A DNA stretch of 64,000 nucleotides from an uncultured delta proteobacterium (GTDB lineage Bacteria; Desulfobacterota; Binatia; DP-6), in NCBI GenBank assembly GCA_963811605.1, contig CAWESA010000010.1:1165066-1229065 (forward strand), given 5' to 3'. The translations under genes and the position numbers were made by a program. Position 1 is the first letter of the stretch. The number at the start of each line of letters is the position of its first letter. Positions 7,578 through 44,605 of the stretch are shown here, piece by piece. Below the pieces are notes generated by a model. It saw nothing but the letters and a program-made list of their open reading frames with translations. It had not been told where the DNA came from and searched no databases.

Positions 7578-9026
<1,449 letters not shown>

Positions 9027-19332: not shown

Positions 19333-21875
19333 CGCGTGACGACGCCCTTCATGCCGCCGGAGACGAGTGCGGCAACGTTGGTGAGCACGCGCGGCAACAC
19401 GACGCCGCCCGGCGACGCCAGGTAGCGCGGGTCCCACACGGGGTCGAACTTGTCCTTGAACCGGCGCAGACCCTGGAAGTTGTAGAACTCCTCGCCGTGC
19501 CGGAAGAGCAACGCGCCGAGCCGGTTCCAGAGCGGCCCGAGCGCATGCCCCTCGAGGCCGGAGAACGGCGCCATGCCGAGATTGAACCAGCGGTAGCCCT
19601 CGCCCTTCCCCCACAGGAACAGCTCGACGAAGAGGAACTCCATCAGGCCCGGATGCGCCCCGGCGCGGTAGCGCATCAGGTCGCAGGACGCCTCCTCGTG
19701 ATCGGCGCCGGGCAGGAGATTGGTGAAGGCGATCAGCGCTCCCTCGCGGCGCACGACGGCGACGGGCAGCCGCGTCAAGTAGTCGGGCGAGAAGAAGCCG
19801 AGCGAGAAGCCCTTCTCCCGCGTGCGTTTCTGCGCCAGCCAGGCGTCCGAGATCTCCCGCAGATCCGGCAGCAGGGCGGCGACGCCTCCTGGAGGCACGA
19901 CCTCGAAGGTGAGGCCGTCGCGCTGCGCCCGGCGGTACGTGGTGCGCAGGCTCTTGCGGGCGCCGCCGTCGAGGGAGAACGTGGCGAGCGGCACGCGCGC
20001 TTCCTCGCCCAGCTTCCGGAGGTCGAGACCCATGTCGAGGTAGAGCGGGAGCTGCTCGGCGCCGACCTCGTAGAACACGGCCCAGCCGCCATGCCGATCG
20101 CTCAGCTCGCGGAAGCGCCAGGCCAGCTCGCGGATCACGTCGGGCGGCCCGACCGGATCACCGAGCGCGACCCAGCTGCGCCCCTCGATCCCGTACATGA
20201 CGAAGCCGCGTCGCCGCTCGTCGAGGAGGAATCGCTTGTCGCCGAGCAGCGCGAGACCCGCGGCGGCCCGGGGCGCCCGGGCCACCACCGCGGCGATGTG
20301 CGCCATGTCCTCCGGCGTCGGCGCGGGAAAGGCGGGGCGCGCGGGACGCAGCAAGCGCCAGCCGCCCACCAGCACGAGCACCAGCATCGCGCCGACCGAC
20401 GCCCGCAACGAGCGCGGCGCCTCGCCCGAGAGCTCGAACTGCCACCAGAGATCGCGCGAGTACTCGACGTGCTTGAAGGAGAAGAGCAGGAGCCAGGTGA
20501 TGCCGACGACGACGAGCAGGATGGCGGCGATCCACTCGGTGGTGAACGGCTCGTCGAGAAGCGACAGGCGACGGAAGAACTGCCGCCGGCACGGCAGCAG
20601 CGCGGCGAGGACGAGCGTGAGGAGGATCGCCTCCTCGTAGTCGAACCCCTTGAGCAGGGAGGCGACGATGCCGGCGACCAGCAGCGCCACGGTCACCATC
20701 CAGGCGCCGTCGAGGCGGCGCTGCAGTCCCCGCGCGAGGACCAGCAGCGCGGCACCCACCAGGCTGCCGACGAAATGCGACACCTCCACCACCGACAGCG
20801 GCAGCACGTCGCCGAGGAGCCCGAGCCGCCCCGCGGCGGCCGGTGTCGCCCCCGAAGCGAGCAGGACGACGCCGGCGACGAAGCTGGTCGCCGCGAGGAT
20901 CTGCGGCAACGGCAACCAGCGGCCGACGATGCCCGCCGCCCGCGCCATGTGCGAGCGGCGCCGCAGCACCTCGCGCCCGGCGAGGAGCACGGCCGTGACG
21001 ATCAGCGGAACGAGGTAGTAGATCAGCCGGTAGGCGAGGAGCGAGGCGAGCATCGCCGCGCCGGCGGTGCCGCGCGGGACGAGGTGCAGCATGATCACCT
21101 CGAACACGCCGAGCCCCGCCGGCACGTGACTCACCACGCCGGCCACCTGCGCCAGCAGGAACACGGGAACGAAGCGCGGGAACGACACCAGGCCCGGCGG
21201 GAGCAGCACGAACAGCACGCTGGCGGCCAGCAGCCAGTCGGCCGCCGACAGCGCGACCTGCGCCAGGGCGACGCCCACCGACGGCATCGGCAGGGGCCAG
21301 CGCCGACCGTCGAGCGGCTTGATCGTCCCGGCGGCGAGCAGGAGATAGATGACGGTCACCGCGAGACACCCACCGCCGATCGTCCTGGCAAGCGCCACCG
21401 GCATGGGCAGGGCGAGCGCGGCGGCGGACGGCGAGACGAGCAGCGACATCCCGAGGAGCACCAGCACGCCGAGCCAGAAGGTGACCGCGTTGAGCGCGAT
21501 CACGCCCGCCACCTCGCGGCGGGACAGGCCCCATCCCGAGTACAGGTGCAGCCGCACGGCGGCGCCGCCCAGGAACGACGCGCCGACGTTGTGGGCGACG
21601 ACGTAGCTCACGAAGGACGCGAACGCCGTGCGGCGATAGGGCAGCGCGTGCCCGACCACGCGCAGGCCGAGCACGTCGTAGCCGCCGAGCACGAGGTAGT
21701 TGAGCAGCGTCAGCACGCCGGCTGCGACCAGGCGGAGCGGCGCGAGAGCCTGCAGCGCGGCCGCCACGTCGTGCAGGTGGTACTGGCCGAGCTCGTGCGT
21801 GAGCAGGCCCAGCGCCAGCACGAAGAGCAGCAGGCTGATCACCGCGCCCGCGATTTGCCTCCGCTCCGTCATCAC
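19329..21875 (-). CDS. mprF: phosphatidylglycerol lysyltransferase / flippase MprF (LpiA)
   Basis: 848 aa with a polytopic N-terminal flippase domain plus a C-terminal DUF2156 synthase domain (FLLDERRRGFVMYGIEGRSWVALGDPVGPP). Classic pairing with acvB downstream. Confidence 0.85.
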   Translation of the reverse strand: MMTERRQIAGAVISLLLFVLALGLLTHELGQYHLHDVAAALQALAPLRLVAAGVLTLLNYLVLGGYDVLGLRVVGHALPYRRTAFASFVSYVVAHNVGASFLGGAAVRLHLYSGWGLSRREVAGVIALNAVTFWLGVLVLLGMSLLVSPSAAALALPMPVALARTIGGGCLAVTVIYLLLAAGTIKPLDGRRWPLPMPSVGVALAQVALSAADWLLAASVLFVLLPPGLVSFPRFVPVFLLAQVAGVVSHVPAGLGVFEVIMLHLVPRGTAGAAMLASLLAYRLIYYLVPLIVTAVLLAGREVLRRRSHMARAAGIVGRWLPLPQILAATSFVAGVVLLASGATPAAAGRLGLLGDVLPLSVVEVSHFVGSLVGAALLVLARGLQRRLDGAWMVTVALLVAGIVASLLKGFDYEEAILLTLVLAALLPCRRQFFRRLSLLDEPFTTEWIAAILLVVVGITWLLLFSFKHVEYSRDLWWQFELSGEAPRSLRASVGAMLVLVLVGGWRLLRPARPAFPAPTPEDMAHIAAVVARAPRAAAGLALLGDKRFLLDERRRGFVMYGIEGRSWVALGDPVGPPDVIRELAWRFRELSDRHGGWAVFYEVGAEQLPLYLDMGLDLRKLGEEARVPLATFSLDGGARKSLRTTYRRAQRDGLTFEVVPPGGVAALLPDLREISDAWLAQKRTREKGFSLGFFSPDYLTRLPVAVVRREGALIAFTNLLPGADHEEASCDLMRYRAGAHPGLMEFLFVELFLWGKGEGYRWFNLGMAPFSGLEGHALGPLWNRLGALLFRHGEEFYNFQGLRRFKDKFDPVWDPRYLASPGGVVLPRVLTNVAALVSGGMKGVVTR

Positions 21876-31801: not shown

Positions 31802-32617
31802 ATGATGAGGATGACGATGCTCGCGGCCGCCCTGGTCGCCTGTGCCTGGTCGGCGACGGCCCACGCCCAGCGCGGCGGCCCGCCCGCTTCGCCGTTCGCG
31901 TACGCGGTGTTCGGGCTCGGCGACGTGACGTTCAAGGACGGGGTGCGCGCCGTCGATGGTGACGTCGGATCCAACGCCGGGACGATGACGGTCGGCCAGA
32001 ACGTCCGCATCGCCGGCACGGTGGTGGGGCAGACCATCACGCTGCGCAAGGGAGCGCTGCCGGACGAGCTGTTCTGCCTGCTGCTGAAAGGCGCCCCATC
32101 CACCATGACGTGCCAGGCGGCGACCTTCCCGGTGGTGAGCGCCTCGCAGCTCCCAGCCGTCCAGGTGGTCCCGGGGACGACGGACCTTCGGGTGCCAAGA
32201 GGCGGCAGCACCTCGCCGATCCCCGCCGGTGCCTATGCCAACGTCCGCGTGGCCTCGCACGGCACGCTGGTCCTGGCGGGCGGCACCTACGTCTTCAGGT
32301 CGATCCGCGTCGGCGCGCGCGGACAGCTGCTGTGCGCGGCGGCCTGCCAGCTCGGCGTCGCCAACACCGTGCAGGTTCGGGCGAACGCCATCCTCGGCGG
32401 TACGAGCGGAACGCGCGCGGAGGCGGTCCGCGTGAACGTCGCCAGGACCTCCGGCAACACCGTCTTCTCGGCCAACAAGCGATCGAACGTGTCGGCCGTC
32501 GTGTACGCTCCCGGCGGTCGCATCGACCTGCGCGACCGCGGCACCTACGTCGGCGCCTTCGTGGGCGGACGGATCAAGGTCGGCCGGGGCGTCATCGTGC
32601 AGGCGCGACGGCCGTGA
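31802..32617 (+). CDS. secreted beta-helix-like protein (ice-binding-like / DUF3494-like?)
   Basis: GGAGGAGGAGG RBS, MMRMTMLAAALVACAWSATAHA signal peptide, and repeated short strands (GTYVFRSIRVGARGQL, VQVRANAILGG, VYAPGGRIDLRDRGTYVGAFVGGRIKVGRGVIV). Confidence 0.5.
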   Translation: MMRMTMLAAALVACAWSATAHAQRGGPPASPFAYAVFGLGDVTFKDGVRAVDGDVGSNAGTMTVGQNVRIAGTVVGQTITLRKGALPDELFCLLLKGAPSTMTCQAATFPVVSASQLPAVQVVPGTTDLRVPRGGSTSPIPAGAYANVRVASHGTLVLAGGTYVFRSIRVGARGQLLCAAACQLGVANTVQVRANAILGGTSGTRAEAVRVNVARTSGNTVFSANKRSNVSAVVYAPGGRIDLRDRGTYVGAFVGGRIKVGRGVIVQARRP

Positions 32618-32725: not shown

Positions 32726-34213
32726 CTACGGGAAGGCGGTGAACAGCGCCGCGACATCGGGCGTGCCCCAGCCGGTCGCGAGATCGTAGCCCGGCTTGGC
32801 GGGGAAGCCCTTCGCCTGGGTCGTGGTGCTCGAGCCCTCCACGATGTCGTGGAAGATCGCGGCGCCTCCGCTCGCCTGGGCCTTGCCGAGCTCGTACAGC
32901 GTCGGGTTGAGGAGGCCGGCTCGCGTGCCCTTCTGCTGATTCAGCATGGCGATCAGGCCGGCGAAGGACGGCGCCCCGGCGCTGGTGCCCGAGACGCAGC
33001 ACACGACGCCACCGTTCTGTCCGATGGGATAGACGGCCGACGCGGCCAGCGCGACGTCCGGCACCGTGCGCCGGTTGCTCTTGAGGCCCTTCTGCCAGCT
33101 CGGACGGCGCAGCCGGCTCCTGCCGCCGCCGCTGGCCAGCTTCCGGTCCTGCCACACGACCTCGTTGCCGTAGCCGGTGACATCGTCCGGCGACGGTGTG
33201 AACGGTGTCGTCCCTCCCACGCCGGTGACGAAGGGCGACTGCGCGAACTGGTCGACGCCCCGCTTCGGCTTCGGCATCGAGACCACCAGGGGGCCGAAGT
33301 CGCCGGAGGCAACCAGCACCGTCTGCCCCTGCGACGCGGCCTGCATGAAGAGCTTCAACGCCTGCCGGATGAGCGGCTTCGCGCTCTTCGACGGGATGAG
33401 CACGATGGACAGGCTCAGCACGGAGACGTCCGCGCGATTGACCAGGTACGTGATCGAGTCGAGCAGCGTGCCCTGGCTGATCGCCGACGTCACGGCCGCC
33501 CCCGGGGCCACCGCCCCGGACCACGTGACGTCGAGGGCGGCCTCGAGCAGATCCTGGTCGTCGACGTGGGAGCCCGGCGTCCCGATCTGCTCGAGATCGA
33601 GGGGCGGCAGGCCGAAGCGGGTACGAAACGCCGCGATGTCGTCGGGATCGACGGGCGCGGTCGAGACGATGCCGATGCGCTGTCCCGCCCCGTCGATTCC
33701 GGCCGCCCGCAGGGACGCGAAGTCGTAGAACGCCGCGTACTCGTCCGGCGTGAAGAAGAACGTTCCGGACGGATCGATGCTGTTCGGCTGCAGCGCCGAG
33801 GTATCGAGCTGGTGCCGGAGCTCGACGTGCTGCCGGAGGTCGACCACGTCGTCGACGATGGACGCAAGAGCCGCCGGGCGGATGCCGGGCTGGCCGCCGA
33901 CGCACTCGACCTGCTGCCGGCCGGCCGGCCGTTTGATGCGGCAGCCGCCGGCGCGAAGCCAGCGCTCGGCGCGCTTCAGATCGCGCGGAGCGGCGCCGAA
34001 GCGCCGCCCGAACTCCACCGGCGTCAGCCATTGCCGGTAGTCCGGGCTGGCCGGATCCTGCTGGGCGTCGATCAGCGCGCGCAACCCGCCGGGGTCCCTG
34101 CCACGCAGACCGACCAGCGTCCGCGCGCCAGGATCGGCGGCGGCCCGCGAGACCTGCACGAGTGCGACGAGAGCGAGGGATCCGGCCAGGAGCCGGAGCG
34201 AGCGAGCAAGCAT
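32726..34213 (-). CDS. S53 (sedolisin/kumamolisin-type) serine peptidase with pro-domain
   Basis: Signal peptide MLARSLRLLAGSLALVALV, pro-kumamolisin-like N-domain, and catalytic Ser in GTSAGAPSFAGLIAML; SGDFGP... Confidence 0.75.
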   Translation of the reverse strand: MLARSLRLLAGSLALVALVQVSRAAADPGARTLVGLRGRDPGGLRALIDAQQDPASPDYRQWLTPVEFGRRFGAAPRDLKRAERWLRAGGCRIKRPAGRQQVECVGGQPGIRPAALASIVDDVVDLRQHVELRHQLDTSALQPNSIDPSGTFFFTPDEYAAFYDFASLRAAGIDGAGQRIGIVSTAPVDPDDIAAFRTRFGLPPLDLEQIGTPGSHVDDQDLLEAALDVTWSGAVAPGAAVTSAISQGTLLDSITYLVNRADVSVLSLSIVLIPSKSAKPLIRQALKLFMQAASQGQTVLVASGDFGPLVVSMPKPKRGVDQFAQSPFVTGVGGTTPFTPSPDDVTGYGNEVVWQDRKLASGGGRSRLRRPSWQKGLKSNRRTVPDVALAASAVYPIGQNGGVVCCVSGTSAGAPSFAGLIAMLNQQKGTRAGLLNPTLYELGKAQASGGAAIFHDIVEGSSTTTQAKGFPAKPGYDLATGWGTPDVAALFTAFP

Positions 34214-34262
34214 CCCGGCAGGCGTACCCACCCGGCGGCGACGCGTCAAATTTCGCGCGACG

Positions 34263-34703
34263 TCAGGGCCGGCAGGTCCCCACCGCCCAGGTGCAGCCGG
34301 ACGGAAGCCGCCCGTCGCGCAGCTCGGCACACTGCGCCTTGCAATCGAACTCGCTCATCCCGTTCTTGCAGTCGGATCGGTCGTCGCCGGTCGGGAAGCA
34401 GCAGCATCCCACCCGGTTCTCGGCCTTCTCGCACGACTCCCCGAACCACCCGCCCAGCAGGGGCTTGGCGTCCTGCGCCTTCGAGGCCTCGACTGCCTTC
34501 TTCCAGTCGGCGAGCTTGGCGAACTCGGGCGCTGCCGGCTGCACCGCCAGGCAATCGGCCTGGCTCTTCGGGGCGCAGGCGTACGAGCCGCCGTATCCCA
34601 CGCAGCAGCATCCCTCGGCGGCCACCGCCCGCGTGTCCCGTGCGCCGGTCCACAGCACCGCCAAGATCGCGATCACGACGCCCGCTCTGGCCTGGCTGGT
34701 CAT
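34263..34703 (-). CDS. small Cys-rich secreted protein
   Basis: MTSQARAGVVIAILAVLWTGA signal peptide. 15 Cys including CCCVGYGGSYAC and CCCFPTGDDRSDC. Confidence 0.5.
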   Translation of the reverse strand: MTSQARAGVVIAILAVLWTGARDTRAVAAEGCCCVGYGGSYACAPKSQADCLAVQPAAPEFAKLADWKKAVEASKAQDAKPLLGGWFGESCEKAENRVGCCCFPTGDDRSDCKNGMSEFDCKAQCAELRDGRLPSGCTWAVGTCRP

Positions 34704-34797
34704 TGCGCGAAGCCCTCCCTCGGTTGGCGACACGTTGCCCACCGCCTGCCCGGCGACCACCGGCCGGGCAGGCCGCGGATCGGAGTGACGAAGGGTC

Positions 34798-35055
34798 CTA
34801 TGGCTTCGCGCCGCCCTTCATCGAGCGCCGCCATCGATCGGTGCAATCACGCACCGTCTCGACGTCGGTGTCGGTCTTCTTCGCGATCTCGTCGGCGCTG
34901 AGCCCGCCGCCCCCCTGGTCCAGCACGGCGACGACCTTCGCGCAGCCAGGCGGCATGGGCTGCGCAGCCCCGGTGGCGCCCGGCTCCTGGGCGGCTGCGC
35001 CGGCGGCAAACAGCGAGCACCCGATCAGCAGTCCCAACGTCGTTCGCATTCGCAT
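34798..35055 (-). CDS. small secreted protein
   Basis: Strong RBS GGGAGGA before the ATG; signal peptide MRMRTTLGLLIGCSLFAAGAAAQ. Confidence 0.45.
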   Translation of the reverse strand: MRMRTTLGLLIGCSLFAAGAAAQEPGATGAAQPMPPGCAKVVAVLDQGGGGLSADEIAKKTDTDVETVRDCTDRWRRSMKGGAKP

Positions 35056-35126
35056 GGGGTGTCCTCCCGATGGGTCGATGGGCCGTCCCTAGCAGATTGT
35101 CCGTCGGTTGACAGTCGGCGGGGCCG

Positions 35127-35720
35127 TCACCGCCGGAAGGACCAGCCCAGCATCAGGAGGCCGATGGCGGCGATCCAGCTCCCCGCAACCCGGACCGCCA
35201 CGCGCACCCACAGGGCGCGGATCGCGGTCACCTGACCGGCGAGAAGCGACACGAGCACGAAGAGCGCGGTCGTGACGCCGGCCGCGCCCAGCGGGCTGGC
35301 GCGCGCCGTCGCCAGCTCGATCCCGTTGACGCCGCCGGCGAGCAGGCCGAGCGCCACGGCGAATCCGACCACCAGCGGCAACGGGAGCGCCGCACCGGCG
35401 GCTACCATGCCCCCGAGCGCGATGGTGAGCACGGCCTCCGCCACGGGCGACGTCATCTGCTGGGCGACGAGCAGTCCGATCACGCTGCCCGTGAGCCACG
35501 CGGCGGGGAGTGCGAACAGCACGGCGCGGCCGAAGCGTGGGCCATGCAGGCCCGCGAGCAACGCCAGCGCGACGACGGGCAGCAGCTCCTGCGGCGTGAC
35601 GAAGAGGTGCGCCAGCCCGTCGTAGAACGGGCCGAAGCCGGTGCTCAGCAGGTGCGCGTGCGCCCGCGACGGGGCGGCGAAGCCGGCGGCGAGCGCGAGC
35701 AGCACGGCTGGCCGGCGCAT
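35127..35720 (-). CDS. HupE/UreJ-family membrane protein (diverged paralog)
   Basis: Signal peptide then HAHLLSTGFGPFYDGLAHLF (GF..G..H motif), six hydrophobic helices, 197 aa. Start 3 nt after the upstream HupE stop. Confidence 0.55.
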   Translation of the reverse strand: MRRPAVLLALAAGFAAPSRAHAHLLSTGFGPFYDGLAHLFVTPQELLPVVALALLAGLHGPRFGRAVLFALPAAWLTGSVIGLLVAQQMTSPVAEAVLTIALGGMVAAGAALPLPLVVGFAVALGLLAGGVNGIELATARASPLGAAGVTTALFVLVSLLAGQVTAIRALWVRVAVRVAGSWIAAIGLLMLGWSFRR

Positions 35721-35722
35721 GG

Positions 35723-36313
35723 TCACACGCCGGTCCTGCCGACGGCCCGCACGAGGAAGACCACACCCGCCAGCGCGACGCCCGCACCGGCCACCCGCAG
35801 CGCCATCCGCCCGATCGGCCAGCGATGCGCGAGGCCGAGGCCGATGCCCGTGGCGTGGATCGTTCCCGTCGCGATCACGAAGCCGATGCTGTAGAGGATC
35901 GCGTCCGCTCCCGGGGGCAGCTCGGTGCCATGGGCGTTGCCGTGGAAGACCGCGAAGAAGCCGACGATCAGCGCGGCGAGCCACAGCCCCGGGCGCGCCT
36001 CGATGGACACCGCAAGCCCGAGCGCGATGGCCGAGAGGGCGATCCCGACCTCGAGCCCCGGGAGGGTCACGCCCATGAGGCCCAGCATCCCGCCGAAGGC
36101 CATCACCATCGGGAAGGTGACGGGGAGGAGCCACATCGCCGGCGCCCCGAGCTGCGCTCCCCACAGCCCGACGGCGAGCATCGCGAGCACGTGATCGAGA
36201 CCCGACACGGGATGCAGCAGGCCGCTGGTGAAGCCGAGCGCCTCGCCACCGCGCGTGTGCGCCAGCGCGGGTGATCCGAGTGACAGCAGCACGAGCAACG
36301 CGAGGCGGGTCAT
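35723..36313 (-). CDS. HupE/UreJ-family Ni/Co transporter-like membrane protein
   Basis: AHTRGGEALGFTSGLLHPVSGLDHVLAMLAVGLWGAQ and FFAVFHGNAHGTE are canonical HupE/UreJ motifs. 196 aa. Start abuts the upstream stop. Confidence 0.75.
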   Translation of the reverse strand: MTRLALLVLLSLGSPALAHTRGGEALGFTSGLLHPVSGLDHVLAMLAVGLWGAQLGAPAMWLLPVTFPMVMAFGGMLGLMGVTLPGLEVGIALSAIALGLAVSIEARPGLWLAALIVGFFAVFHGNAHGTELPPGADAILYSIGFVIATGTIHATGIGLGLAHRWPIGRMALRVAGAGVALAGVVFLVRAVGRTGV

Positions 36314-37314
36314 CGCACCATGCCGAGGAGGAGCGCCGTCCGCTGGATGGTCCAGAACGCCCCCAGCGAGCCGACCGCGTACCCCGGCAGCAGCTCCACC
36401 CAGCGCGGCCACCTGATCTGTAGCTGGCGAAACGAGCGCTCGAGCAGGAGGATCAGGAGGATGAACGTGACCTGGCCGATCTCGACGCCGGCGTTGAAGC
36501 TCACGAGCGCGAGCGGCAGCTCGCTGCGCGGCAGCCCGGCGCTGGTCAGCGCGCCGGCGAAGCCGAAGCCGTGCAGCAGCCCGAAGAGGAAGGCGACGAT
36601 CCAGGGCTTGCGGATCGTCAGACTGGTCTCGCCCCGCCACGACCGCACGATCTCCGGCCCGAGGAAGAGGATGCTGAGCGCGATGGCGGCGTTCAGCGGG
36701 AGCAGCGGCGCGTTGGCGTAGCCGAGCGTCGCGATCGCGAGCGTGATGCTGTGAGCGATCGTGAACGCCGTCACGGTCTCGATCAGCATCCAGCGGTCCT
36801 TCACGATCAGCAGCAGCCCCAGCACGAAGAGGAGATGATCCACGCCGAAGGCGATGTGCTGGATGCCGTGCAGCAGGTAGGTGCCCGCGAGCGCCAGGCG
36901 CCCCTGGGACGCGGCGATCTCCACCCAGGGCTGGGACGGGGTGACCAGCGTGGTGGAGCTCCCGCCGTCGGCCGTCTCCACGCGGACGAGCACGTCCGTG
37001 ATGGTTCCCTGGAGCCCGACGAACTCGATGCGCTTCCCGGCGAGCCCGGCTTCGCCGGTGTCGATCGTGCGCCGCTCCACCAGCGAGTCCGTGAGCTCCT
37101 GCACGATCGGCTCGCCGACCTCGCGCACGCCCTCCGGGAGCCCGAGCACGACGGGGAGGCGCATGCCGGAGAGCACCGGCGTGCGCCACAGCAGGGTCCA
37201 GCGCGCCGGGCCGACTTCCCGGACCTCGAGCAAGGCGGGGCGCACCTCGTGCGCGCGAGCCGCGGGCGTCGCCGCGAGCACCCCGAGTGCCAGGGCGATC
37301 AGGATGCGGCTCAT
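36310..37314 (-). CDS. HupE/UreJ-like membrane protein with ~140-aa N-terminal periplasmic domain
   Basis: Signal peptide MSRILIALALGVLAATPAARA, soluble domain, then HGIQHIAFGVDHLLFVLGLLLIV and LLHGFGFAGAL matching the H-x4-G-x-DH and HG motifs of HupE. Confidence 0.6.
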   Translation of the reverse strand: MSRILIALALGVLAATPAARAHEVRPALLEVREVGPARWTLLWRTPVLSGMRLPVVLGLPEGVREVGEPIVQELTDSLVERRTIDTGEAGLAGKRIEFVGLQGTITDVLVRVETADGGSSTTLVTPSQPWVEIAASQGRLALAGTYLLHGIQHIAFGVDHLLFVLGLLLIVKDRWMLIETVTAFTIAHSITLAIATLGYANAPLLPLNAAIALSILFLGPEIVRSWRGETSLTIRKPWIVAFLFGLLHGFGFAGALTSAGLPRSELPLALVSFNAGVEIGQVTFILLILLLERSFRQLQIRWPRWVELLPGYAVGSLGAFWTIQRTALLLGMVR

Positions 37315-37340
37315 CGAACCGCCGCGGCCGCCGCTGCGCA

Positions 37341-38186
37341 TCAGAACGCGAACCCGACCGCCATCAGCGGGCCGCGCAGCTGCAGGGCGAGGTCGTTCCC
37401 GGCTCCGAAATCGTGATTGAACCCGACCACCCGGTAGCCCGCCTCGAGCCAGGGCTGGGTGCCCCAGGGGGACCAGTCGAACCAGTACCGGATGTCGCCG
37501 AGGAAGCTCCAGTTCAGCCGGGAGCCGCCGGGAAGGCCGCCCAGGTCGCCGCGGAAGTCGAACGAGAAGTGGTCGTCGACCGGGATCTCCCAGCGCAGAC
37601 CGAGCATGGGGGTGGCCGTCGTGAAGCTGCGCGAGACGCTGCGGCCGCCGCCCTGGATGCCGCCCACCACGCCCGCCGAGGCCTCGAGGTCGACCCCCAG
37701 GTGGACGATGCGGGTGCCGAGATAGACGCCGAGCGAGATCGGACGCCGCCATGCGGGAACGCGATACTCGACCAGCTCGTAGCCCACGGCGACGTCCGCG
37801 ATCACCGGCCTGAGCCGTGCCGTCGCCCCGACCTGCACGGTGCAGCAGAACCGGGTGGGAACGCGCTCGCTCGCGCTCGTGTCGAGGAAGCCACCATAGG
37901 CATCCGCGAACAAGCTCCAGCGATCGTACCGGGCCGCGAAGTAGCCGCCGAGCGTGAATGCGTCGCCGTGCCACAGCAGCGTCAGGACGTCGCCGATCGT
38001 GGTGTCGACCGTGGCGGTGCGTCCCTTCACCTCGATCGTGCCGAACGTCCCCGGCAGCCAGGCGTACGGCATGACCTCGAACTGCCAGCCGGGAGCCTGC
38101 TCCTCCTCCGCGGCGCGGGCTGGCGCGGCGGCCACGAGGATCGCGATTCCGAGCAGCATCGTGCGGATGGCCGAGGGCATCGTCAT
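37341..38186 (-). CDS. outer-membrane beta-barrel protein (hypothetical)
   Basis: Signal peptide MTMPSAIRTMLLGIAILVAAAPARA, alternating amphipathic strands, terminal aromatic ...LMAVGFAF. Confidence 0.6.
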   Translation of the reverse strand: MTMPSAIRTMLLGIAILVAAAPARAAEEEQAPGWQFEVMPYAWLPGTFGTIEVKGRTATVDTTIGDVLTLLWHGDAFTLGGYFAARYDRWSLFADAYGGFLDTSASERVPTRFCCTVQVGATARLRPVIADVAVGYELVEYRVPAWRRPISLGVYLGTRIVHLGVDLEASAGVVGGIQGGGRSVSRSFTTATPMLGLRWEIPVDDHFSFDFRGDLGGLPGGSRLNWSFLGDIRYWFDWSPWGTQPWLEAGYRVVGFNHDFGAGNDLALQLRGPLMAVGFAF

Positions 38187-38189
38187 TGC

Positions 38190-39020
38190 CTACTTCGGGA
38201 ACAGGAACTGCACCTGGAAGCGCAGCTGCCAGTCCGGGCCGAAGCTCGGGGTGAGCGCGTTGTAGTACGCCTGCAACGACGTGTTGACCGGCAGCTTGGC
38301 GAGATCGCCCAGCGCCTCACCTCCGGGCAGAGCGCCGAGCCGGAACGTCCTGCCGCCGCCGAGCCCGAGCGGGACGGTCCACTGGTCGCCCTTCGAGGCC
38401 GTCCAGTCGGCCGTCAAGATGGGAGCGGTCGTGGCGTACCATCCCTTGCCGAAGTTGTAGTTCACGAACGGCTGCATGAGCAGCAAGTTCACGTCGTGAT
38501 CGCTCCAGCCGGCGAACGACCACTGGTTGTTGACCAGCATGCCGACCACCCACGGGCCCTGCATGGTGAGCGCCACGGCGGACGGCCCGGCGCTCCACTT
38601 GCCGCTGCCCAGCTCCGTGCTGGTCGCGGTCGGGAACGTGAAGGTCGGTCCGGCGCCCCAGATGAACGTCTCGGAACCGACCGGTGACAGGAACAGCGTC
38701 GGGTTGATGTCGCCGAGGCCGAAGGCGTGGTCGATGCCTGGCGCCAGCGACGGCTGGTTGATGATGGGCATGATCGTCCGCGTGATGAGGTTCCAGCTGT
38801 CACCGAGCTTGATCGGGATGACCGGCTGGACGTTCAGGACCCACACCGTCCGGTTCTCCGGCCCGCTGTTGAAGTTGAAGTTGTTCTGGAACGGGACGCT
38901 GATGAGATCGGCGACGGGGTTCTGCGTCTGCTTCGCGAGGTCGGTGTCGCTGTCGTCTGCCCCCGCCGGCGCGACGAGCGCGAGCGCGACCAGGCCCACG
39001 GTAATCCAGGTTCTCCGCAT
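38190..39020 (-). CDS. outer-membrane transporter-like beta-barrel (MetA-pathway/PF13557-like)
   Basis: Signal peptide MRRTWITVGLVALALVAPAGA, NPVADLISVPFQNNFNF, C-terminal ...LRFQVQFLFPK. Start 4 nt from the downstream gene. Confidence 0.6.
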   Translation of the reverse strand: MRRTWITVGLVALALVAPAGADDSDTDLAKQTQNPVADLISVPFQNNFNFNSGPENRTVWVLNVQPVIPIKLGDSWNLITRTIMPIINQPSLAPGIDHAFGLGDINPTLFLSPVGSETFIWGAGPTFTFPTATSTELGSGKWSAGPSAVALTMQGPWVVGMLVNNQWSFAGWSDHDVNLLLMQPFVNYNFGKGWYATTAPILTADWTASKGDQWTVPLGLGGGRTFRLGALPGGEALGDLAKLPVNTSLQAYYNALTPSFGPDWQLRFQVQFLFPK

Positions 39021-39027
39021 CGGCCCC

Positions 39028-39870
39028 TCACGCCGCCGGACAGGAGCGCACGCAGCCGACGTACTGCTGCTCGCAGGCCGTCAACGCCGGCGCCTGTGCG
39101 CTCTCCGCGCCGGTGCGGCAGATGAACGCATTCGTTTGGCTGGTCTCGACGCAGTCCGCGAGCGCCGCGCTGCCGGCGGGATTGGACGCCTCGCACGCGG
39201 TGGCCGCCGCGCGCCGCTCGGCGTCGCACATCGCGAATGCCACCACGAGCGCGGAACGCACCGGCGCATTGCAGGTCGTGCGATCCGCGCGGCAGGTCTC
39301 GGTGCAGCCGGAGTCCTTGTTGCGGCACCCGCTCGTATCGGCGTTGGCGATCCGGTTGCACGCCGCGTATGCCGAGGATCGCGTGCGGCGCGCCTGGATC
39401 TCGCACAGCCGCGCGCCCGCCGGCGGCTCGCCGGGGCCGCAGCGCTCCGTGCACGCGTCGAACTCGGCACGGCACGCGCGCAGCTCGGGGGCGGTCTGCC
39501 CGCGGACGCGGTTTCGGCACTGGAACCCCGCGACGCGGGCGTCGTCGATGCAGTGCACCCGCTGCTTCTTCTCGGTCGGGAACTGCCTGGCGCAGCCGGC
39601 GATCGCCAGCTGCTGCTGGCCGAGGCACGCGGCGACCGCCGGCCCGGCGCCGGTCGCGGCGTCGCAGTCGTTCTCCAGGGTCGCACACGCCTCGACACAT
39701 GCCGGGTCGCGATCGCGGCACAGCTGGCGGTCGAGCGCGAAGCCGTCGCGGGCGGCGCGGCGGCATTCCACGTAGTCGGTGCGCGCGGCCTCGAGGCACG
39801 GGTCGCTGCACACCCGGGCGAGTGCCAGCGGTGTCCCCAGGACGGCGAGCAGGAGCGCGAGGACACGCAT
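39028..39870 (-). CDS. Cys-rich secreted protein with internal repeats
   Basis: MRVLALLLAVLGTPLALA signal peptide. About 30 Cys in repeated C-x(n)-C-x3-C modules (CRDRDPACVEACATLENDCDA..., CRAEFDACTERCG..., CRNKDSGCTETCRADRTTC...). Confidence 0.55.
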   Translation of the reverse strand: MRVLALLLAVLGTPLALARVCSDPCLEAARTDYVECRRAARDGFALDRQLCRDRDPACVEACATLENDCDAATGAGPAVAACLGQQQLAIAGCARQFPTEKKQRVHCIDDARVAGFQCRNRVRGQTAPELRACRAEFDACTERCGPGEPPAGARLCEIQARRTRSSAYAACNRIANADTSGCRNKDSGCTETCRADRTTCNAPVRSALVVAFAMCDAERRAAATACEASNPAGSAALADCVETSQTNAFICRTGAESAQAPALTACEQQYVGCVRSCPAA

Positions 39871-39892
39871 GGAGCCGGGCGACGAGACGCAG

Positions 39893-40240
39893 CTAGCGCT
39901 GTGGCTGGAACCTGTCCCGGGGGTCCGCCGCGAAGCAGGTCGACGTCCCCTCCTGGCACAGGACGACGTACGTCGTGCGCTGGTTGCAGCCCGCGACACC
40001 CACCGTGTACTCGACCCGGTTGAGGCCCATCACGAACGGTCCCTGGATGGCGGGCTGGATGTAGTCCTGCGACAGCACGGTCCCGGTCGCCGACGGACAG
40101 TTGAGATCGAATCGGCCGCGCTCCAGCGCCGCCTGGATGGCGGCGGGCTGCCGGCTGGCGAGCTGCTGCGATTGCGTCGCGCAGCCCGCCACGATAGCCG
40201 CCGCGACACCGAATGCCGCCACGTCCCATGATTTCACCAT
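39893..40240 (-). CDS. small lipoprotein
   Basis: AGGAGGG RBS; lipobox AAAIVAGC; 115 aa with 4 further Cys. Confidence 0.55.
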   Translation of the reverse strand: MVKSWDVAAFGVAAAIVAGCATQSQQLASRQPAAIQAALERGRFDLNCPSATGTVLSQDYIQPAIQGPFVMGLNRVEYTVGVAGCNQRTTYVVLCQEGTSTCFAADPRDRFQPQR

Positions 40241-40415
40241 CCCCGGGTTCCCTCCTGAGAGCCCCAGCGATAGCCCGGGCTCGCGGGGACGTCTTGCCAT
40301 CTTGCGCCAGCCCCACGCAACGTCGCCATCGTGCACGCCGGCGTTACCCGGCAAGACTCGCACCGCAGCGAGCCGTCGCCTTGCGCGCAGGTTCGTGGGC
40401 CACGTAGGAGGCGGC

Positions 40416-41150
40416 ATGCACAGCAGCCACCACGGGGGCCGCGCCCAGCGCGACGGCTCGCTCGAGCTCGTGCTGACGGGCAAGCGGCTGCCGAAGTTCG
40501 GCCTCCTGCTCGGTGCCATGCTGGCGGAGCTCACGCTCTCGCCCTTCATCGCGATGATCCCCGGCGGGATCGTCGTCGTGCAGGGACTCACCACGCTCGT
40601 CCTCCTGGCGGCGCTGGCGGTCGCGGGTCCGCATCGCATCGCCGTCGTGCTCTTCACCGTCGCGCTCCTCTTTCACGTGGTGGCGAGCGTCGCGGAGGGC
40701 TCGTCACTGGCGACGATATCGCCCGCGTTCCGCCTCGCATTCCTCTGCTACGTGGTCTGGCTCGTCGTCCGGCGCGTGCTCGCCGATCGCGCCGTGACGC
40801 TGGACACCGTCGCCGGCGCGGCGTGCGCCTACATGCTCCTCGGGCTGGTGTGGGGGGAGCTCTTCCTGCTGATCGAGCGGCTACGGCCGGGCTCGCTGCA
40901 CGTGCCCGCCACCTGGATCGAAGGTCCGGGTCGAACGCTGCGAACGACGCTCGTGTATTTCAGCTTCGCCACCCTGACGACGCTCGGGTACGGCGAGATC
41001 CACCCGACCGACGCCGTGGGGGGCAGCATCTGTGCCGCGGAGGCTCTGGTCGGCCAGCTCTACCTGGCGATCATGATCGCCCGCATGGTCGGACTGCACA
41101 CCGCGCGGCAGACGACGGACGACGGCCCCGCTCCCGGCCAGGCGCCATGA
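40416..41150 (+). CDS. K+ channel-like membrane protein (Ion_trans_2 pore, TLGYG filter)
   Basis: AGGAGG RBS, ATG. Four N-terminal TM helices, a pore helix and selectivity filter FATLTTLGYGEI, and an inner helix. No cytoplasmic gating domain. Confidence 0.7.
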   Translation: MHSSHHGGRAQRDGSLELVLTGKRLPKFGLLLGAMLAELTLSPFIAMIPGGIVVVQGLTTLVLLAALAVAGPHRIAVVLFTVALLFHVVASVAEGSSLATISPAFRLAFLCYVVWLVVRRVLADRAVTLDTVAGAACAYMLLGLVWGELFLLIERLRPGSLHVPATWIEGPGRTLRTTLVYFSFATLTTLGYGEIHPTDAVGGSICAAEALVGQLYLAIMIARMVGLHTARQTTDDGPAPGQAP

Positions 41151-42421
41151 GCAACGCGTCCGGAGGAAGCGCCGCCGTCGCCGCGGCGCGCCTGCTCGAG
41201 TGCGAGGACTGCGCGCTCCTGCACCGGGTGCGACCCATCGCCGAGGACTCGCGCGCGACGTGCGGCCGCTGCGGCGCGCTGCTGTTCGCCCACAAGCGCG
41301 ACGCGCTGCAACGCTCGACGGCGCTCTATCTGGCGGCGCTCATCCTGTGGGGGGTGGCCAACGGTCTCCCGTTCCTCACCTTCGAGCTCGAGGGTCGCAG
41401 GCAGCCGAGCCTGCTCATCTCGGGGCCGCTGAGCCTCTACCGCGACGGGCTGTGGGAGCTCGCGGCCATCGTCTTCCTCTTCGTCATCGCCTTTCCGCTG
41501 CTGCGGATCGTCACCAGCCTCTGCGTGCTCCTCCCGCTCCAGGCCGGGCGGCGACCGCGCTGGCTCGCGTCGCTGTTCCGCTTCGTCGACGCGATCCATC
41601 CGTGGGCGATGGTGGAGGTGTTCCTCCTCGGCGTGCTGGTCGCCTACTCGAAGCTGGTCGATCTCGCCACCATCGTCGTCGGACCGGCCCTCGTCGCCTT
41701 CGTGGGCCTGATGGTCGCGCTCGTGGCGGCGCGATCGGCGCTCGACGTCGACGAGGTGTGGGAGCGCATCCAGCCGTCGCCGCCGGCGCCCCCTGCGGGC
41801 CCATCCGACCCGCTCCTGATCGGGTGCCACGGCTGTCACCGGGTCTGCCGGGTTCCCGCCCCGCCGGCGACCGGCACCCCGCGGTGCCCGCGCTGTGGAA
41901 CGCGGCTGCATCGCCGCAAGCCGAACAGCCTGAGCCGGTCGTGGGCGCTGGTGCTCGCCGCGCTGATCCTCTACGTGCCGGCCAATGTCTACCCCGTCAT
42001 GACGTTCGTCTCGTTCGGGCGCGGCGCCCCCTCCACGATCCTGGGCGGCGTGAGCGAGCTCGTCGAGGCCGGCATGTGGCCGCTCGCCGCCGTCGTCTTC
42101 CTCGCCAGCATCACCGTGCCGGTCCTGAAGCTCATCGGCCTCTCCGTGCTCCTCATCTCGGTCCGGCGGCGGTCGCACTCGCAGACGCGCCAGCGGACCA
42201 TGCTCTACCGCATCGTCGAGGGCGTCGGCCGCTGGTCGATGATCGACATCTTCACGCTCGCGATCCTCGCCGCCCTCGTCCAGCTCGGCTCCCTCGCCAC
42301 CATCCAGCCTGGCCCCGGCGCGATCGCGTTCTGCGCCGTCGTGGTCCTCACCATGTTCGCCGCCATGGCCTTCGACCCGCGTCTGCTGTGGGACGCGGCA
42401 GGAGCGAATCATGACCGATGA
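41147..42421 (+). CDS. pqiA: paraquat-inducible protein A (two-repeat PqiA)
   Basis: ATGA overlap with the channel gene. Two repeats each with a Cys4 zinc-ribbon (CEDCALL...CGRCG; CHGCHRV...CPRCG) followed by paired TM helices. Confidence 0.8.
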   Translation: MSNASGGSAAVAAARLLECEDCALLHRVRPIAEDSRATCGRCGALLFAHKRDALQRSTALYLAALILWGVANGLPFLTFELEGRRQPSLLISGPLSLYRDGLWELAAIVFLFVIAFPLLRIVTSLCVLLPLQAGRRPRWLASLFRFVDAIHPWAMVEVFLLGVLVAYSKLVDLATIVVGPALVAFVGLMVALVAARSALDVDEVWERIQPSPPAPPAGPSDPLLIGCHGCHRVCRVPAPPATGTPRCPRCGTRLHRRKPNSLSRSWALVLAALILYVPANVYPVMTFVSFGRGAPSTILGGVSELVEAGMWPLAAVVFLASITVPVLKLIGLSVLLISVRRRSHSQTRQRTMLYRIVEGVGRWSMIDIFTLAILAALVQLGSLATIQPGPGAIAFCAVVVLTMFAAMAFDPRLLWDAAGANHDR

Positions 42422-43994
42422 CATCTCCCATGTGGTCGTCGAGCGCCGACGCGGCCTCCCGCTCGTCTGGGTGATCCCGCTGCTCGCGGCGGCGATCGGC
42501 GCCTGGCTCGCCTACACGGCCTGGTCGCGCAAGGGTCCCACGATCACCCTCACCTTCGAGGCCGCGCAGGGCCTCCAGCCGGGCACCTCGCCGATCAAGT
42601 ACCGCGACGTGGAGATGGGCGTCGTCAAGACGGTCGACCTGAGCCCGGACCTCACGCACGTCGTGGTGACGGCGGAGATGAAGAAGAGCGCGACGGAGCA
42701 CCTGCGCGAGGGCACCCAGTTCTGGATCGAGAGCGTGCGCCTGAGCGCGTCGGGCGTCTCCGGTCTCGGCACCCTCCTCTCGGGCGTCTACATCGGCATG
42801 TCGCCAGGCGAGGGAAAGCCGACCCGGCGGTTCACCGGCCTCGAGCAGGCCCCCGTGCTGACGGTGAACCAGCCCGGGCGGAAGTTCCTCCTGCGGGCCG
42901 ACAGGCTCGGCTCCCTCTCCGCCGGCTCGCCGATCTACTTCCGGGGTATCCCGGCGGGCGAGGTCCTCGGCTACGACCTCGACCGCGACGGACAGGGCGT
43001 GAGCATCTACGCCTTCGTGCACGCGCCGTACGATGCGCTGGTGCGCGACCAGTCGCACTTCTGGAACGCCAGTGGCATCGACATGTCGGTCGGCACGAGC
43101 GGGCTCACCGTGCGGACCGAATCGCTGGCCGCCATCGTCGAGGGCGGCATCGCCTTCGACACGCCGGTCTCCGCCAGCACGGGCGAGCCGAGCAAGGACG
43201 GCGCCACGTTCGGTCTGTATCGCTCCTTCGAGAGCATCAAGGAGGCGCAGTTCACGACCAAGGTCCCCTTCCTCATCTACTTCGAGGGCACGGTCGGGGG
43301 CCTGTCCCCCGGCGCGCCGGTCAACTTCCGGGGCATCCAGATCGGCGAGGTGAAGGACGTGCGCCTGGAGATCGACGTGAACACCTACATGATTCGGCTG
43401 CCGGTGCTCATCGACATCGAGCCGCAGCGCATCAGCGTCGTCGGCTCGATGGTGCCGCTGGCGCATCAGGAGCACATGGCCAGATTCGTCGAGCAGGGCA
43501 TGCGGGCGCAGCTACGCTCGGGCAACCTTCTGACCGGCTCGCAGGTAGTGGCACTCGACTTCTTCCCGAAAGCGCCGGCCGAGCATCTGACCTACGCCGA
43601 CGGCTATGCCGTGATCCCGGCCGTTCCGTCGCAGACCGCGGAGCTGATGGACAAGGCCACCGCCTTCATCGACAACCTGTCGAAGGCGCCGATCGCGCAG
43701 CTCGTGACCGACCTGCGCGCCACCGTCGACAACGTGAACCGGCTCGTCGGCTCCGGCCCGGACAACGGCGTGGGACCGTTGCTGGACGGGGCACGCGCCA
43801 CGCTGGCGCAGGCCGACGCGACGCTCAAGTCGGCAGACGGGGTGATCGGCCCCGACTCGGCGCTGCGCTACGACATGGCCAACCTGTTCCAGGAGCTGAC
43901 CCGCATGTCACGCTCGCTGCGAACGCTCGCCGACTATCTCGAGAACAACCCCAACGCGCTCATCTTCGGCAAGGGAAAATCGGGAGAAAAATGA
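42411..43994 (+). CDS. pqiB: paraquat-inducible protein B (multi-MCE domain)
   Basis: N-terminal TM LPLVWVIPLLAAAIGAWLAY, then three MCE-like domains (ITLTFEAAQGLQPGTSPIKYRDVEMG...) and a C-terminal helical tail. Confidence 0.85.
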   Translation: MTDDISHVVVERRRGLPLVWVIPLLAAAIGAWLAYTAWSRKGPTITLTFEAAQGLQPGTSPIKYRDVEMGVVKTVDLSPDLTHVVVTAEMKKSATEHLREGTQFWIESVRLSASGVSGLGTLLSGVYIGMSPGEGKPTRRFTGLEQAPVLTVNQPGRKFLLRADRLGSLSAGSPIYFRGIPAGEVLGYDLDRDGQGVSIYAFVHAPYDALVRDQSHFWNASGIDMSVGTSGLTVRTESLAAIVEGGIAFDTPVSASTGEPSKDGATFGLYRSFESIKEAQFTTKVPFLIYFEGTVGGLSPGAPVNFRGIQIGEVKDVRLEIDVNTYMIRLPVLIDIEPQRISVVGSMVPLAHQEHMARFVEQGMRAQLRSGNLLTGSQVVALDFFPKAPAEHLTYADGYAVIPAVPSQTAELMDKATAFIDNLSKAPIAQLVTDLRATVDNVNRLVGSGPDNGVGPLLDGARATLAQADATLKSADGVIGPDSALRYDMANLFQELTRMSRSLRTLADYLENNPNALIFGKGKSGEK

Positions 43995-44605
43995 TGCGTT
44001 GCCTGCGCCTCCTCTGCGTGCTCCTGGCCACCTCCATCCTCGGCCACGGCTGCTTCGGCTCGGCCGTCACCAGGTACTACATGCTGTCGAGCGTCGCGCC
44101 CGCGACCGCCACGTCGGTCGAGACGAGCCCCGCGTCGCGCGTGATCGCCGTGGGTCCCGTCTCGATCCCGGACTACGTGGACCGCCCGCAGATCGTCGTG
44201 CGCGAGGGCGCCAACCAGGTGCGGCTCGCCGGCTTCCACAACTGGGCCGGCTCGCTCTCGGACATGGTCGGCCGCGTGCTCCTGGAGGATCTGAGCGCGC
44301 AGATGCCCGACGACCACGTCCTCCCGTTCCCGCAGGGCGGCGCGTCCGTCTTCGACTACCGCGTGGCGGTGCAGCTCAGCCAGTTCGACGTCAGCAGCGC
44401 AGGCGAGGCCGTCGTCGGGGCGAGCTGGCGGGTGTGGGATCGGGCCGGGACGAAGACGCGCCTCACCGCGAGCACGACGACGCGAGCGGTGGCGACGGGC
44501 ACCGGCTACGAGGAGCGCGTGGCGGCCCTCAGCCAGGCGATCGCCGATCTCGCCGGGGACATCGCGCGCAGCCTGCAGCACCTGGACGCGGCGCCGCGGC
44601 ATTGA
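43991..44605 (+). CDS. pqiC: PqiC / ABC-type transport auxiliary lipoprotein (DUF330)
   Basis: ATGA overlap with pqiB. Lipoprotein N-terminus LATSILGHGC; YmbA/PqiC-like length and pattern (RYYML...IAVGPVSIPDYVDRPQIVV). Confidence 0.7.
   Translation: MMRCLRLLCVLLATSILGHGCFGSAVTRYYMLSSVAPATATSVETSPASRVIAVGPVSIPDYVDRPQIVVREGANQVRLAGFHNWAGSLSDMVGRVLLEDLSAQMPDDHVLPFPQGGASVFDYRVAVQLSQFDVSSAGEAVVGASWRVWDRAGTKTRLTASTTTRAVATGTGYEERVAALSQAIADLAGDIARSLQHLDAAPRH

Follow-up and report, generated by a model that had tools for sequence, protein, structure and literature searches.

Do ten closely spaced genes on one strand, three of which encode consecutive membrane proteins of the HupE/UreJ family of nickel/cobalt permeases, work as one metal acquisition route, or are they several units that have come to stand together? 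The question is raised by the cluster at positions 32726-40240 of a stretch of DNA from an uncultured delta proteobacterium (contig CAWESA010000010.1 of assembly GCA_963811605.1; the whole stretch of 64,000 nucleotides that was analysed is henceforth referred to as the window). A first-pass annotation had proposed a single dedicated metal route through the inner membrane, periplasm and outer membrane. This proposal was not supported, since the first four genes (G1-G4) and the HupE/UreJ trio (G5-G6-G7) recur separately in other genomes and the last gene (G10) has no conserved link to either. The reading that we consider probable, though by no means certain, is that units conserved apart from one another have been joined in this lineage into the run of ten genes, the core of which is a three-paralog metal permease set.

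Because the G/C content of the window is ~71%, raw lists of open reading frames (ORFs) are full of spurious frames, and the genes of the cluster were resolved by third-position GC (GC3) frame analysis. The cluster described in the first-pass annotation is real and its coordinates are right, but the continuous minus-strand run comprises ten genes and not nine. The models of G3, G6, G9 and G10 match public gene calls exactly. We refer to G1-G4 as module A and to G5-G6-G7, probably with G9, as module B, a putative transition-metal transport set:

39893-40240, minus strand: G1, 115 aa, predicted lipoprotein, first gene of module A
39028-39870, minus strand: G2, 280 aa, secreted, 27 Cys, module A
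38190-39020, minus strand: G3, 276 aa, predicted outer-membrane β-barrel of FapF/COG4313 fold with N-terminal helix, module A
37341-38186, minus strand: G4, 281 aa, small outer-membrane β-barrel by homology, ending ...AVGFAF, last gene of module A
36310-37314, minus strand: G5, 334 aa, anglerase-type HupE/UreJ-2 permease
35723-36313, minus strand: G6, 196 aa, canonical HupE/UreJ permease
35127-35720, minus strand: G7, 197 aa, diverged HupE/UreJ paralog
34798-35055, minus strand: G8, 85 aa, exported, possibly a lipoprotein (LIGC), with a 2-Cys domain of ~45 aa
34263-34703, minus strand: G9, 146 aa, secreted, 14 Cys including two GCCC motifs
32726-34213, minus strand: G10, 495 aa, S53 (sedolisin/kumamolisin) peptidase

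The spacers from G1 to G7 are, in order, 22, 7, 3, 26, -4 and 2 nt, so that the spacing of 0-27 nt originally given for the whole cluster describes G1-G7 roughly (-4 to 26 nt) but not the last three junctions, which are wider (71 nt for G7-G8, 94 nt for G8-G9 and 49 nt for G9-G10). The stop/start abutments at 38186/38190, 36310/36313 and 35720/35723 had been read correctly: the G5 stop is overlapped by the G6 start over 4 nt (ATGA) and G7 begins 2 nt after G6. GC content and GC3 are even over G1-G10 and the flanks, and there is thus no sign of recent foreign origin; a repeat scan of the cluster returned chance-level GC-rich matches only and no junction scars. G1, G2, G8 and G9 received no family assignment in Pfam and NCBIfam searches. 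Myxococcota, initially suggested as the related group, could not be established as such; the closest relatives carry the label ‘delta proteobacterium’ and those proteins of the G9 family that carry a name belong to Candidatus Binatia.

All three proteins of the trio pass the Pfam gathering cut-offs of the HupE/UreJ profiles (23-24.5 bits), and the family assignment, which was to be given up had the profile searches failed, therefore stands. G6 matches PF04955 over the full length of the profile (185.1 bits, E 1.1e-54), G5 matches PF13795 (HupE_UreJ_2) with residues 146-297 (145.2 bits, E 1.6e-42) and also PF04955 above the gathering cut-off (27.1 bits), and G7 matches PF04955 with 35.1 bits (cut-off 23). 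In each protein the signal-peptide cut predicted by the A-x-A rule falls directly before a histidine (ARA/HEV in G5, ALA/HTR in G6 and AHA/HLL in G7, where the slash marks the cut), and this N-terminal histidine is kept in the ortholog alignments of G5, G6 and G7. The motifs ALA/H, HPxSGxDH and FHGxAHGTELP of G6 are kept in 15 orthologs. The membrane motifs of G5 are the variants HIAFGVDH and LLHGFGF, and its residues H153, D159, H160 and H248 are invariant across a 36-sequence alignment. G7 keeps the N-terminal His and DGxxH and is missing the HPxxGxDH motif of TM1; its second His motif reads GLLHGxxNG in most orthologs and GLLAGGVNG, with the His lost, in the window copy. The three paralogs are hardly alignable to one another (BLAST E 0.1-0.6), yet the orthologs of each are 54-82% identical, which indicates that the triplication is old and each copy separately constrained and, as far as sequence comparison goes, points to ancient, non-redundant roles for the three.

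A reference-genome scan with G5 gave 48 loci. Orthologs of G6 and G7 follow in the same order in 11 of the 12 non-redundant loci in which the G5 homolog is at least 70% identical and enough downstream sequence is available (the exception is L002/L003), and the trio was also found in L014 and L026. Its hosts are labelled Acidobacteriota, Verrucomicrobiae/Udaeobacter, Thermoanaerobaculia, Casimicrobiaceae and ‘delta proteobacterium’, and it occurs in many phyla (at least 11 genomes) with no G1-G4 homolog. G5 has thousands of homologs, with 72-85% identity among the matches listed (P0002-P0120), which come from Acidobacteriota, Verrucomicrobiota, Thermoanaerobaculia, Gammaproteobacteria and ‘delta proteobacteria’; identity as high as this between phyla would imply either recent inter-phylum transfer or very strong constraint. 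In L024 (Promineifilaceae, Chloroflexota; positions 701-2218) a G7-like HupE domain is fused to NicO directly after the G5 homolog. The fusion, which has a His/Asp-rich loop of ~45 residues, occupies the place of G6 and ties G7 to a Ni/Co-type permease partner.

The extra periplasmic domain that had been assigned to one of the HupE proteins was borne out by a structural model of G5 (pLDDT 73.5, with N-domain blocks at ~77-87), in which strands at residues 27-132 form a β-sandwich of ~110 aa and helices at residues 139-329 form the membrane domain. His22, which stands just after the A-x-A signal-peptidase site, is invariant in 36 of 36 sequences, and the N-domain as a whole is conserved as strongly as the membrane domain. 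In the predicted model the N-domain is structurally similar to the solved Ang-1 domain 9GCE, although Ang-1 (9gce) was not matched at E<=10 by phmmer with G5 or by hmmsearch with the 36-sequence profile. In anglerases, a β-sandwich domain that begins with a His is joined to a permease of the HupE/UreJ-2 type (Franco Cairo et al., Nat Commun 2025, PMC12537917; PDB 9GCE); one of them, RbAng-1a, binds Cu2+ with a Kd of 74 nM and Ni2+ with a Kd of 220 nM through a mono-histidine brace, and the domains are proposed to fish metal ions into the permease (PMC12537917). On the strength of the model, G5 is a predicted protein of the same architecture and fold as an anglerase with an N-domain that is distinct in sequence, and not an Ang-1 member.

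These features suggest how module B might work. Signal-peptide cleavage would expose His22 as the N-terminus of the β-sandwich tethered to the HupE/UreJ-2 channel of G5, where, by analogy with RbAng-1a, it could capture a periplasmic metal ion (Cu or Ni). The captured ion would then pass to a His/Asp/Glu site in the membrane domain and be translocated by an assembly of G5 and G6, and perhaps G7. In this scheme G6 would be the canonical HupE permease of the set, G7, a degenerate paralog in which few metal ligands are left, would probably be a structural or adaptor subunit, and G9 is a candidate periplasmic accessory. The overlapping or abutting stop and start codons of G5-G7 suggest coupled, stoichiometric synthesis and hence, possibly, a hetero-oligomer. 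We infer metal capture by His22, the hetero-oligomer, the role of G9 and uptake rather than export from these resemblances and gene positions.

The company in which the trio is usually found allows a different view of its function. De novo ORF clustering of 51 loci and the window showed that in 47 of 49 genome loci the gene just upstream of the G5 homolog is PPIase-like (~290 aa, membrane-anchored, PPIC-type, PF13145) and that DUF3604 (PF12228, E 2e-205), a protein with a signal peptide and an N-terminal HxH-type motif, is encoded in one to three copies near G5 in 32. The trio could accordingly be a maturation or metal-delivery device, possibly an exporting one, for periplasmic metalloenzymes such as DUF3604, with the window copy orphaned or re-assigned. 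Besides these two partners and the HxH-type motif, such a function is favoured by the long His-rich loop of the L024 NicO fusion and by the N-domain of G5, which is conserved like the membrane domain and so suggests docking to a protein partner. However, neither DUF3604 nor the PPIase-like gene was found by tblastn anywhere in the window, and both are also missing from L140; since the trio is intact in the window and in L140, it evidently functions without them. In addition, DUF3604 has one passing mention in the searchable literature, and a sequence search of the PDB with DUF3604 of L004 returned no related solved structure. The HupE of Rhizobium leguminosarum, the only HupE known to have had its transport measured, takes up Ni (Brito et al. 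2010, cited in PMC12537917). We therefore regard delivery to periplasmic enzymes as an unlikely function of the trio. A bolder extension of the permease reading, in which G5-G6-G7 is an obligate hetero-oligomeric translocon of a kind yet undescribed (ion capture by the anglerase subunit, a canonical HupE channel and a ligand-poor adaptor), G9 assists it in Binatia-like bacteria by binding a soft metal such as Cu(I) or Ni and the set ancestrally served secreted DUF3604 enzymes, is rather doubtful; if true, it would amount to a widespread periplasmic metalloenzyme-supply system in soil bacteria. As an observation in its own right, the operon of DUF3604, a PPIase-like gene and HupE/UreJ-2 is widespread in many phyla (L004-L051, e.g. 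L004:6665-12134 and L001:6723-12134).

We turn to module A. G1 has the lipobox IVAGC and four further Cys, and an AGGAGG ribosome-binding site precedes its ATG at 40240. G2 contains 27 Cys (the first count had been 30) with periodic spacing, and all 27 are kept in four orthologs of 44-60% identity (L053, L054 and L056). The two outer-membrane β-barrels that had been proposed were recovered, G3 by the fold of its model and G4 by homology, but G3 has no Pfam match at E<=0.1, not even to PF13557 (Phenol_MetA_deg), one of the profiles proposed for checking the cluster. The predicted model of G3 is a β-barrel of the FapF/COG4313 type with an N-terminal helix. Its family numbers >7600 proteins, with 63-85% identity among the top matches (P0121-P0240), and the 120 homologs listed are all without a Pfam domain. 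A signal peptide and a C-terminal GFAF are present in G4, which has 1251 representative relatives; it does not itself match PF13505, but 12 of 60 aligned relatives match this OMP_b-brl family (best E 7e-11) and 4 of 60 match YfaZ, by which transitive homology G4 is classed as an outer-membrane barrel. G3, G4 and the G4 profile found no match among PDB sequences.

The ten-gene run is flanked on one side by a convergent DUF7305 gene (31802-32617) and on the other by a divergent group of genes:

40416-44605, plus strand: Ion_trans_2, PqiA, PqiB (three MlaD domains) and a PqiC-type lipoprotein, assigned by Pfam, divergent from G1

This arrangement is conserved. L053 carries G1 (89% identity), G2 (60%), G3 (84%) and G4 (76%) in order, divergent from Ion_trans_2-PqiA-PqiB-PqiC (61-81%), with opposite-strand cupin genes and no HupE genes after G4. 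L054 has G1-G4 divergent from Ion_trans_2-PqiABC at lower identity (71% for G1, which lies upstream of G2 as in L053, and 48% for G4, which follows G3), again with no HupE after G4. In L056 the order is BON-G2-G3-G4-HdeA-(G8 domain x2)-G9-DUF3300-DUF2950 (G4 52% identical), which is the gene order of the window minus the trio and minus the S53 peptidase. In assembly GCA_975321975.1, from a close relative whose PqiA is 86% identical to that of the window, a G3 homolog and a trio block (DUF3604-DUF1254/1214-PPIase-like-G5-G6-G7-G9) lie at opposite ends of one 36.6-kb contig. We also surveyed 41 metagenome loci of at least 4 kb with G3 homologs of 53-70% identity. G1, G2, G8 and G9 were absent from all 41 and one weak (28%) G4-like match was found; PqiABC lies near the G3 homolog in four (L067, L077, L084 and L091) and sulfatases in ~10. 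The neighbours of the G3 family (L060-L139) are often sulfatases, DUF1254/DUF1214-like proteins, HAD hydrolases or PqiABC, and not metal systems.

Given that Ion_trans_2-PqiABC is its conserved synteny partner, it is more likely that module A is an independent envelope unit that serves hydrophobic-molecule traffic or envelope maintenance than that it serves metal uptake. COG4313 channels are implicated in the uptake of hydrophobic molecules (PMC4493636), and next to lipid-transport genes of the Pqi type such a function would be more in place than the import of metals; that module A is linked to Pqi is our reading of this synteny.

It is here that the proposal of one route can be weighed. In its full form, G3 and G4 would admit a metal or metallophore through the outer membrane, G2, G8 and G9 would shuttle it, the HupE trio would import it and the S53 peptidase would process a component. 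The co-directional order of all ten genes and the short spacers of G1-G7 are what such a route would be expected to show, G9 is indeed syntenic with the trio, and L056, by joining G2-G4 to G8-G9, makes G8 and G9 a bridge between both modules. Against this stand the occurrence of G1-G4 genes with no HupE in L053, L054 and (as G2-G4) L056, the trio with no G1-G4 in at least 11 genomes, the 41 metagenome loci in which the neighbours of G3 are varied hydrolases, and the fact that the proteins closest to G3 in fold transport polypeptides or hydrophobic molecules and not metals. G10 adds to these objections. The sedolisin-type peptidase announced for this position was confirmed: G10 matches PF09286, the pro-kumamolisin activation domain, with 36.7 bits (E 6e-9; cut-off 23.5) and kumamolisin-As (1sio) with E 1.3e-24, and its EAALD, SGD and SGTSAGAP align to the catalytic Glu/Asp, the oxyanion Asp and the catalytic Ser of kumamolisin-As. 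However, a G10 homolog was present in none of the related loci examined, and to judge from these loci G10 appears to be a neighbour with no conserved link to the other genes.

Signals of metal-responsive control, which a single route might be expected to carry, were likewise absent from our scans. The Rfam scan of the whole window returned nothing at gathering thresholds, and thus no cobalamin or NiCo riboswitch; the NikR-type box GTATGA-N14-18-TCATAC had 0 matches in the window, and no AT-rich Fur/Zur-like stretch was visible in the 175-bp region upstream of G1, so the Nik/Fur/Zur-type operators sought upstream of 40240 were not seen. Taken together, these results lead us to consider a single metal or metallophore route quite improbable. 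The sigma-70 promoter scan found 0 sites, and terminator-like sites were uninformative, the single one on the minus strand sitting within G5. A conserved block was detected upstream of G1:

40291-40309, minus strand: TGGCGCAAGATGGCAAGAC, ~50-70 nt before the G1 start, candidate promoter/operator of module A

The pattern TGGCG-N5-ATGGCAAGAC is common to the window, L053 (~8715-8735) and L054 (~8666-8686), in all of which the surrounding intergenic sequence has diverged. It resembles a -24/-12 (sigma-54) promoter, but the spacing looks one base short of the consensus, and such a promoter was not called. A hairpin in the G8-G9 spacer (11-bp perfect stem) was also discarded, as its folding energy is ordinary for its composition (z = -1.07).

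The reading that we prefer, separately conserved units around a permease trio, leaves the Cys-rich proteins to be placed. The first-pass annotation had regarded them as candidate metal chaperones. For G9 this has some support, as it travels with the trio in L004, L055, L140 and L141, downstream of G7; it is the sole Cys-rich protein with recurrent trio synteny, G2 belonging to module A. The G9 family comprises 41 proteins only, and all 14 Cys, the two GCCC motifs included, are invariant in a 28-sequence alignment. However, the invariance of the Cys in G2 and G9 would be accounted for equally well by a disulfide scaffold and by metal binding. What stands between G7 and G9 varies: it is G8 in the window, another small protein in L004 and L140, and none in L055. 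A conserved G8 at this position was considered and rejected, given the different protein in L004 and L140 and the absence of any G8-like sequence from L004, L055 and L140 (tblastn E<=1e-3). L056 and L057 encode, just upstream of the G9 homolog, a 138-aa protein made up of two tandem copies of the G8 2-Cys domain (77-84% identity). The domain (GCAKVVAVLDQGGGGLSADEIAKKTxTDVETVRxCTDxWR; L056:6098-6514 and window 34798-35055) looks helix-turn-helix-like though exported.

At its most sceptical, the evidence could be taken to mean that adjacency has no significance beyond a shared envelope location, that the Cys-rich proteins are ordinary disulfide-stabilised proteins and that the position of G9 is inherited order. 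The invariance of all G2 and G9 Cys would agree with this, as would the even number (14) in G9, expected of structural disulfides, the small size of the G9 family and its restriction to one lineage, its occurrence alone in L058, L059 and L142, and the shuffling of BON, HdeA, DUF3300, DUF2950 and sulfatase neighbours among relatives. Another protein of the window contains 14 Cys-rich repeats of the disintegrin type, from which Cys-rich secreted proteins would seem to be common in this organism. However, G9 stays downstream of the trio though upstream and intervening genes differ between loci, which argues for selection on the adjacency, and invariant triple-Cys motifs are unusual in simple disulfide scaffolds. 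We consider it very unlikely that the adjacency is without meaning.

Some further observations touch these proteins. The repeat protein just mentioned is a 992-aa ORF (window 51557-54535, plus strand) in which 14 stretches match Disintegrin (PF00200, E 1e-84) and which also has a Dictyostelium CTDC repeat; it is unusually long for a Cys-rich repeat protein of a bacterium, and the GC3 gene caller accepted only its 3' part (53738-54535). In L004 and L140 the trio is preceded by a DUF3300-DUF2950 pair, which, in varied orders, adjoins the trio, G9 or G3 homologs (L004:4461-6619, L140:3162-5329, L056:7067-9381 and L127/L128). BON, HdeA and sulfatase genes likewise recur in varied orders near the trio, G9 or G3 homologs. 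From this shuffling, the envelope genes of this lineage appear to form a loosely linked neighbourhood.

Elsewhere in the window, positions 17938-21875 (minus strand) hold the gene of an MprF-like lysyl-phosphatidylglycerol synthase (848 aa) and, after it, that of a VirJ-family protein (464 aa), a pair for membrane-lipid modification that is unrelated to the HupE cluster. A partial ATP synthase operon (a, beta, gamma and alpha subunits) lies at 58462-63527 (minus strand), with an extra gap at 59142-59811. Between 47100 and 49000 (~1.9 kb) no gene was accepted by the GC3-based caller, and three long ORFs scanned from this region had no Pfam match.

Several points weigh against the joining of separate units around a metal permease set, or against parts of the proposed mechanism. 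The 26-nt spacer between G4 and G5 means that G5-G7 may well be co-transcribed with G1-G4 and so coupled to them at least in expression. L056 links G2-G4 to G8-G9, and G9 links to the trio; the modules thus share a neighbourhood network, and in this lineage may be less than fully independent. In about half its loci (L058, L059, L142 and a second copy in L055) G9 is solitary or placed elsewhere, and in L056, too, it has surroundings other than the trio. The His-rich loop of the L024 NicO fusion resembles that of efflux-type NicO proteins, and the metal transported could be Ni, Co, Cu or Zn, in either direction. The proposed binding of metal by His22 is an argument from architecture, the N-domain of G5 having no detectable sequence similarity to Ang-1. 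Finally, AF3 models of anglerases indicate a low likelihood of homo-multimers (PMC12537917).

If the preferred reading is right, its implications go beyond this locus. The trio, with the anglerase-type subunit first, is conserved over several soil phyla and often translationally coupled, and in the searchable literature a trio led by such a subunit appears to be undescribed. Few metal permeases are as poorly understood as the HupE/UreJ proteins. Three divergent paralogs that always stand together could reveal how these small permeases operate, namely as hetero-oligomers with one capture subunit. The anglerase idea itself is one year old and based on isolated domains. The analysis also draws attention to a very common, unstudied operon (DUF3604, PPIase-like and HupE/UreJ-2) and to a large outer-membrane channel family, that of G3, for which Pfam has no model. 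Annotators of high-GC genomes may take from it that a tight cluster of genes on one strand can be a mosaic, and that functional units should be defined by conserved synteny rather than by spacing alone.

Comparison with known systems places each unit more closely. G10 shares the activation domain and catalytic residues of the sedolisin/kumamolisin peptidases (MEROPS S53), low identity being the sole notable difference. G3 is 11-16% identical to the COG4313 channels (Pput2725, 4rl8) and to FapF (5o65), again with no PF13557 match; it is a barrel-only protein of 276 aa that lacks the coiled-coil domain of FapF and its fapA-E partners, and its conserved neighbours are G1, G2, G4 and PqiABC, unlike the fap operon of FapF. 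G6 has the same N-terminal His, HPxxGxDH and FHGxxHG as HupE/UreJ Ni/Co permeases such as the HupE of Rhizobium leguminosarum, whereas G7 is unlike typical members in that metal-ligand motifs are missing. A typical HupE/UreJ is encoded by one gene, usually in a hydrogenase, urease or B12-cobalt neighbourhood, although this context is not a strict requirement; the window has a set of three fixed, divergent paralogs with no hydrogenase, urease or B12 riboswitch context. Indeed, Pfam scans of the 64 kb revealed neither hydrogenase nor urease genes nor any other gene that obviously encodes a Ni/Co enzyme, as had been stated for the two enzyme systems in the first-pass annotation.

G5 is like the anglerases in its order of signal peptide, N-terminal His, β-sandwich and PF13795 membrane domain. 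Ang-1 is reported mainly from Pseudomonadota and Ang-2, for which there is no solved structure, only from Actinomycetota (PMC12537917), whereas the G5 clade is found in Acidobacteriota, Verrucomicrobiota and ‘delta’/Binatia-like bacteria; the neighbours of Ang-1 are DUF4198, IndA-like and PfkB, and those of the G5 clade are DUF3604, the PPIase-like gene and two HupE paralogs. It is because of these differences in taxonomic range and neighbours, together with the missing sequence match, that G5 was not filed as an Ang-1 member. The soluble periplasmic zinc-binding proteins ZrgA and PA4063, which are encoded in Zur-regulated operons, have His-rich loops and serve ABC importers; the G5 domain is part of a permease polypeptide, carries one invariant His, at its N-terminus, and is 10-12% identical to them. 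Lastly, published anglerases are described as single proteins, whereas G5 heads a conserved row of three paralogs.

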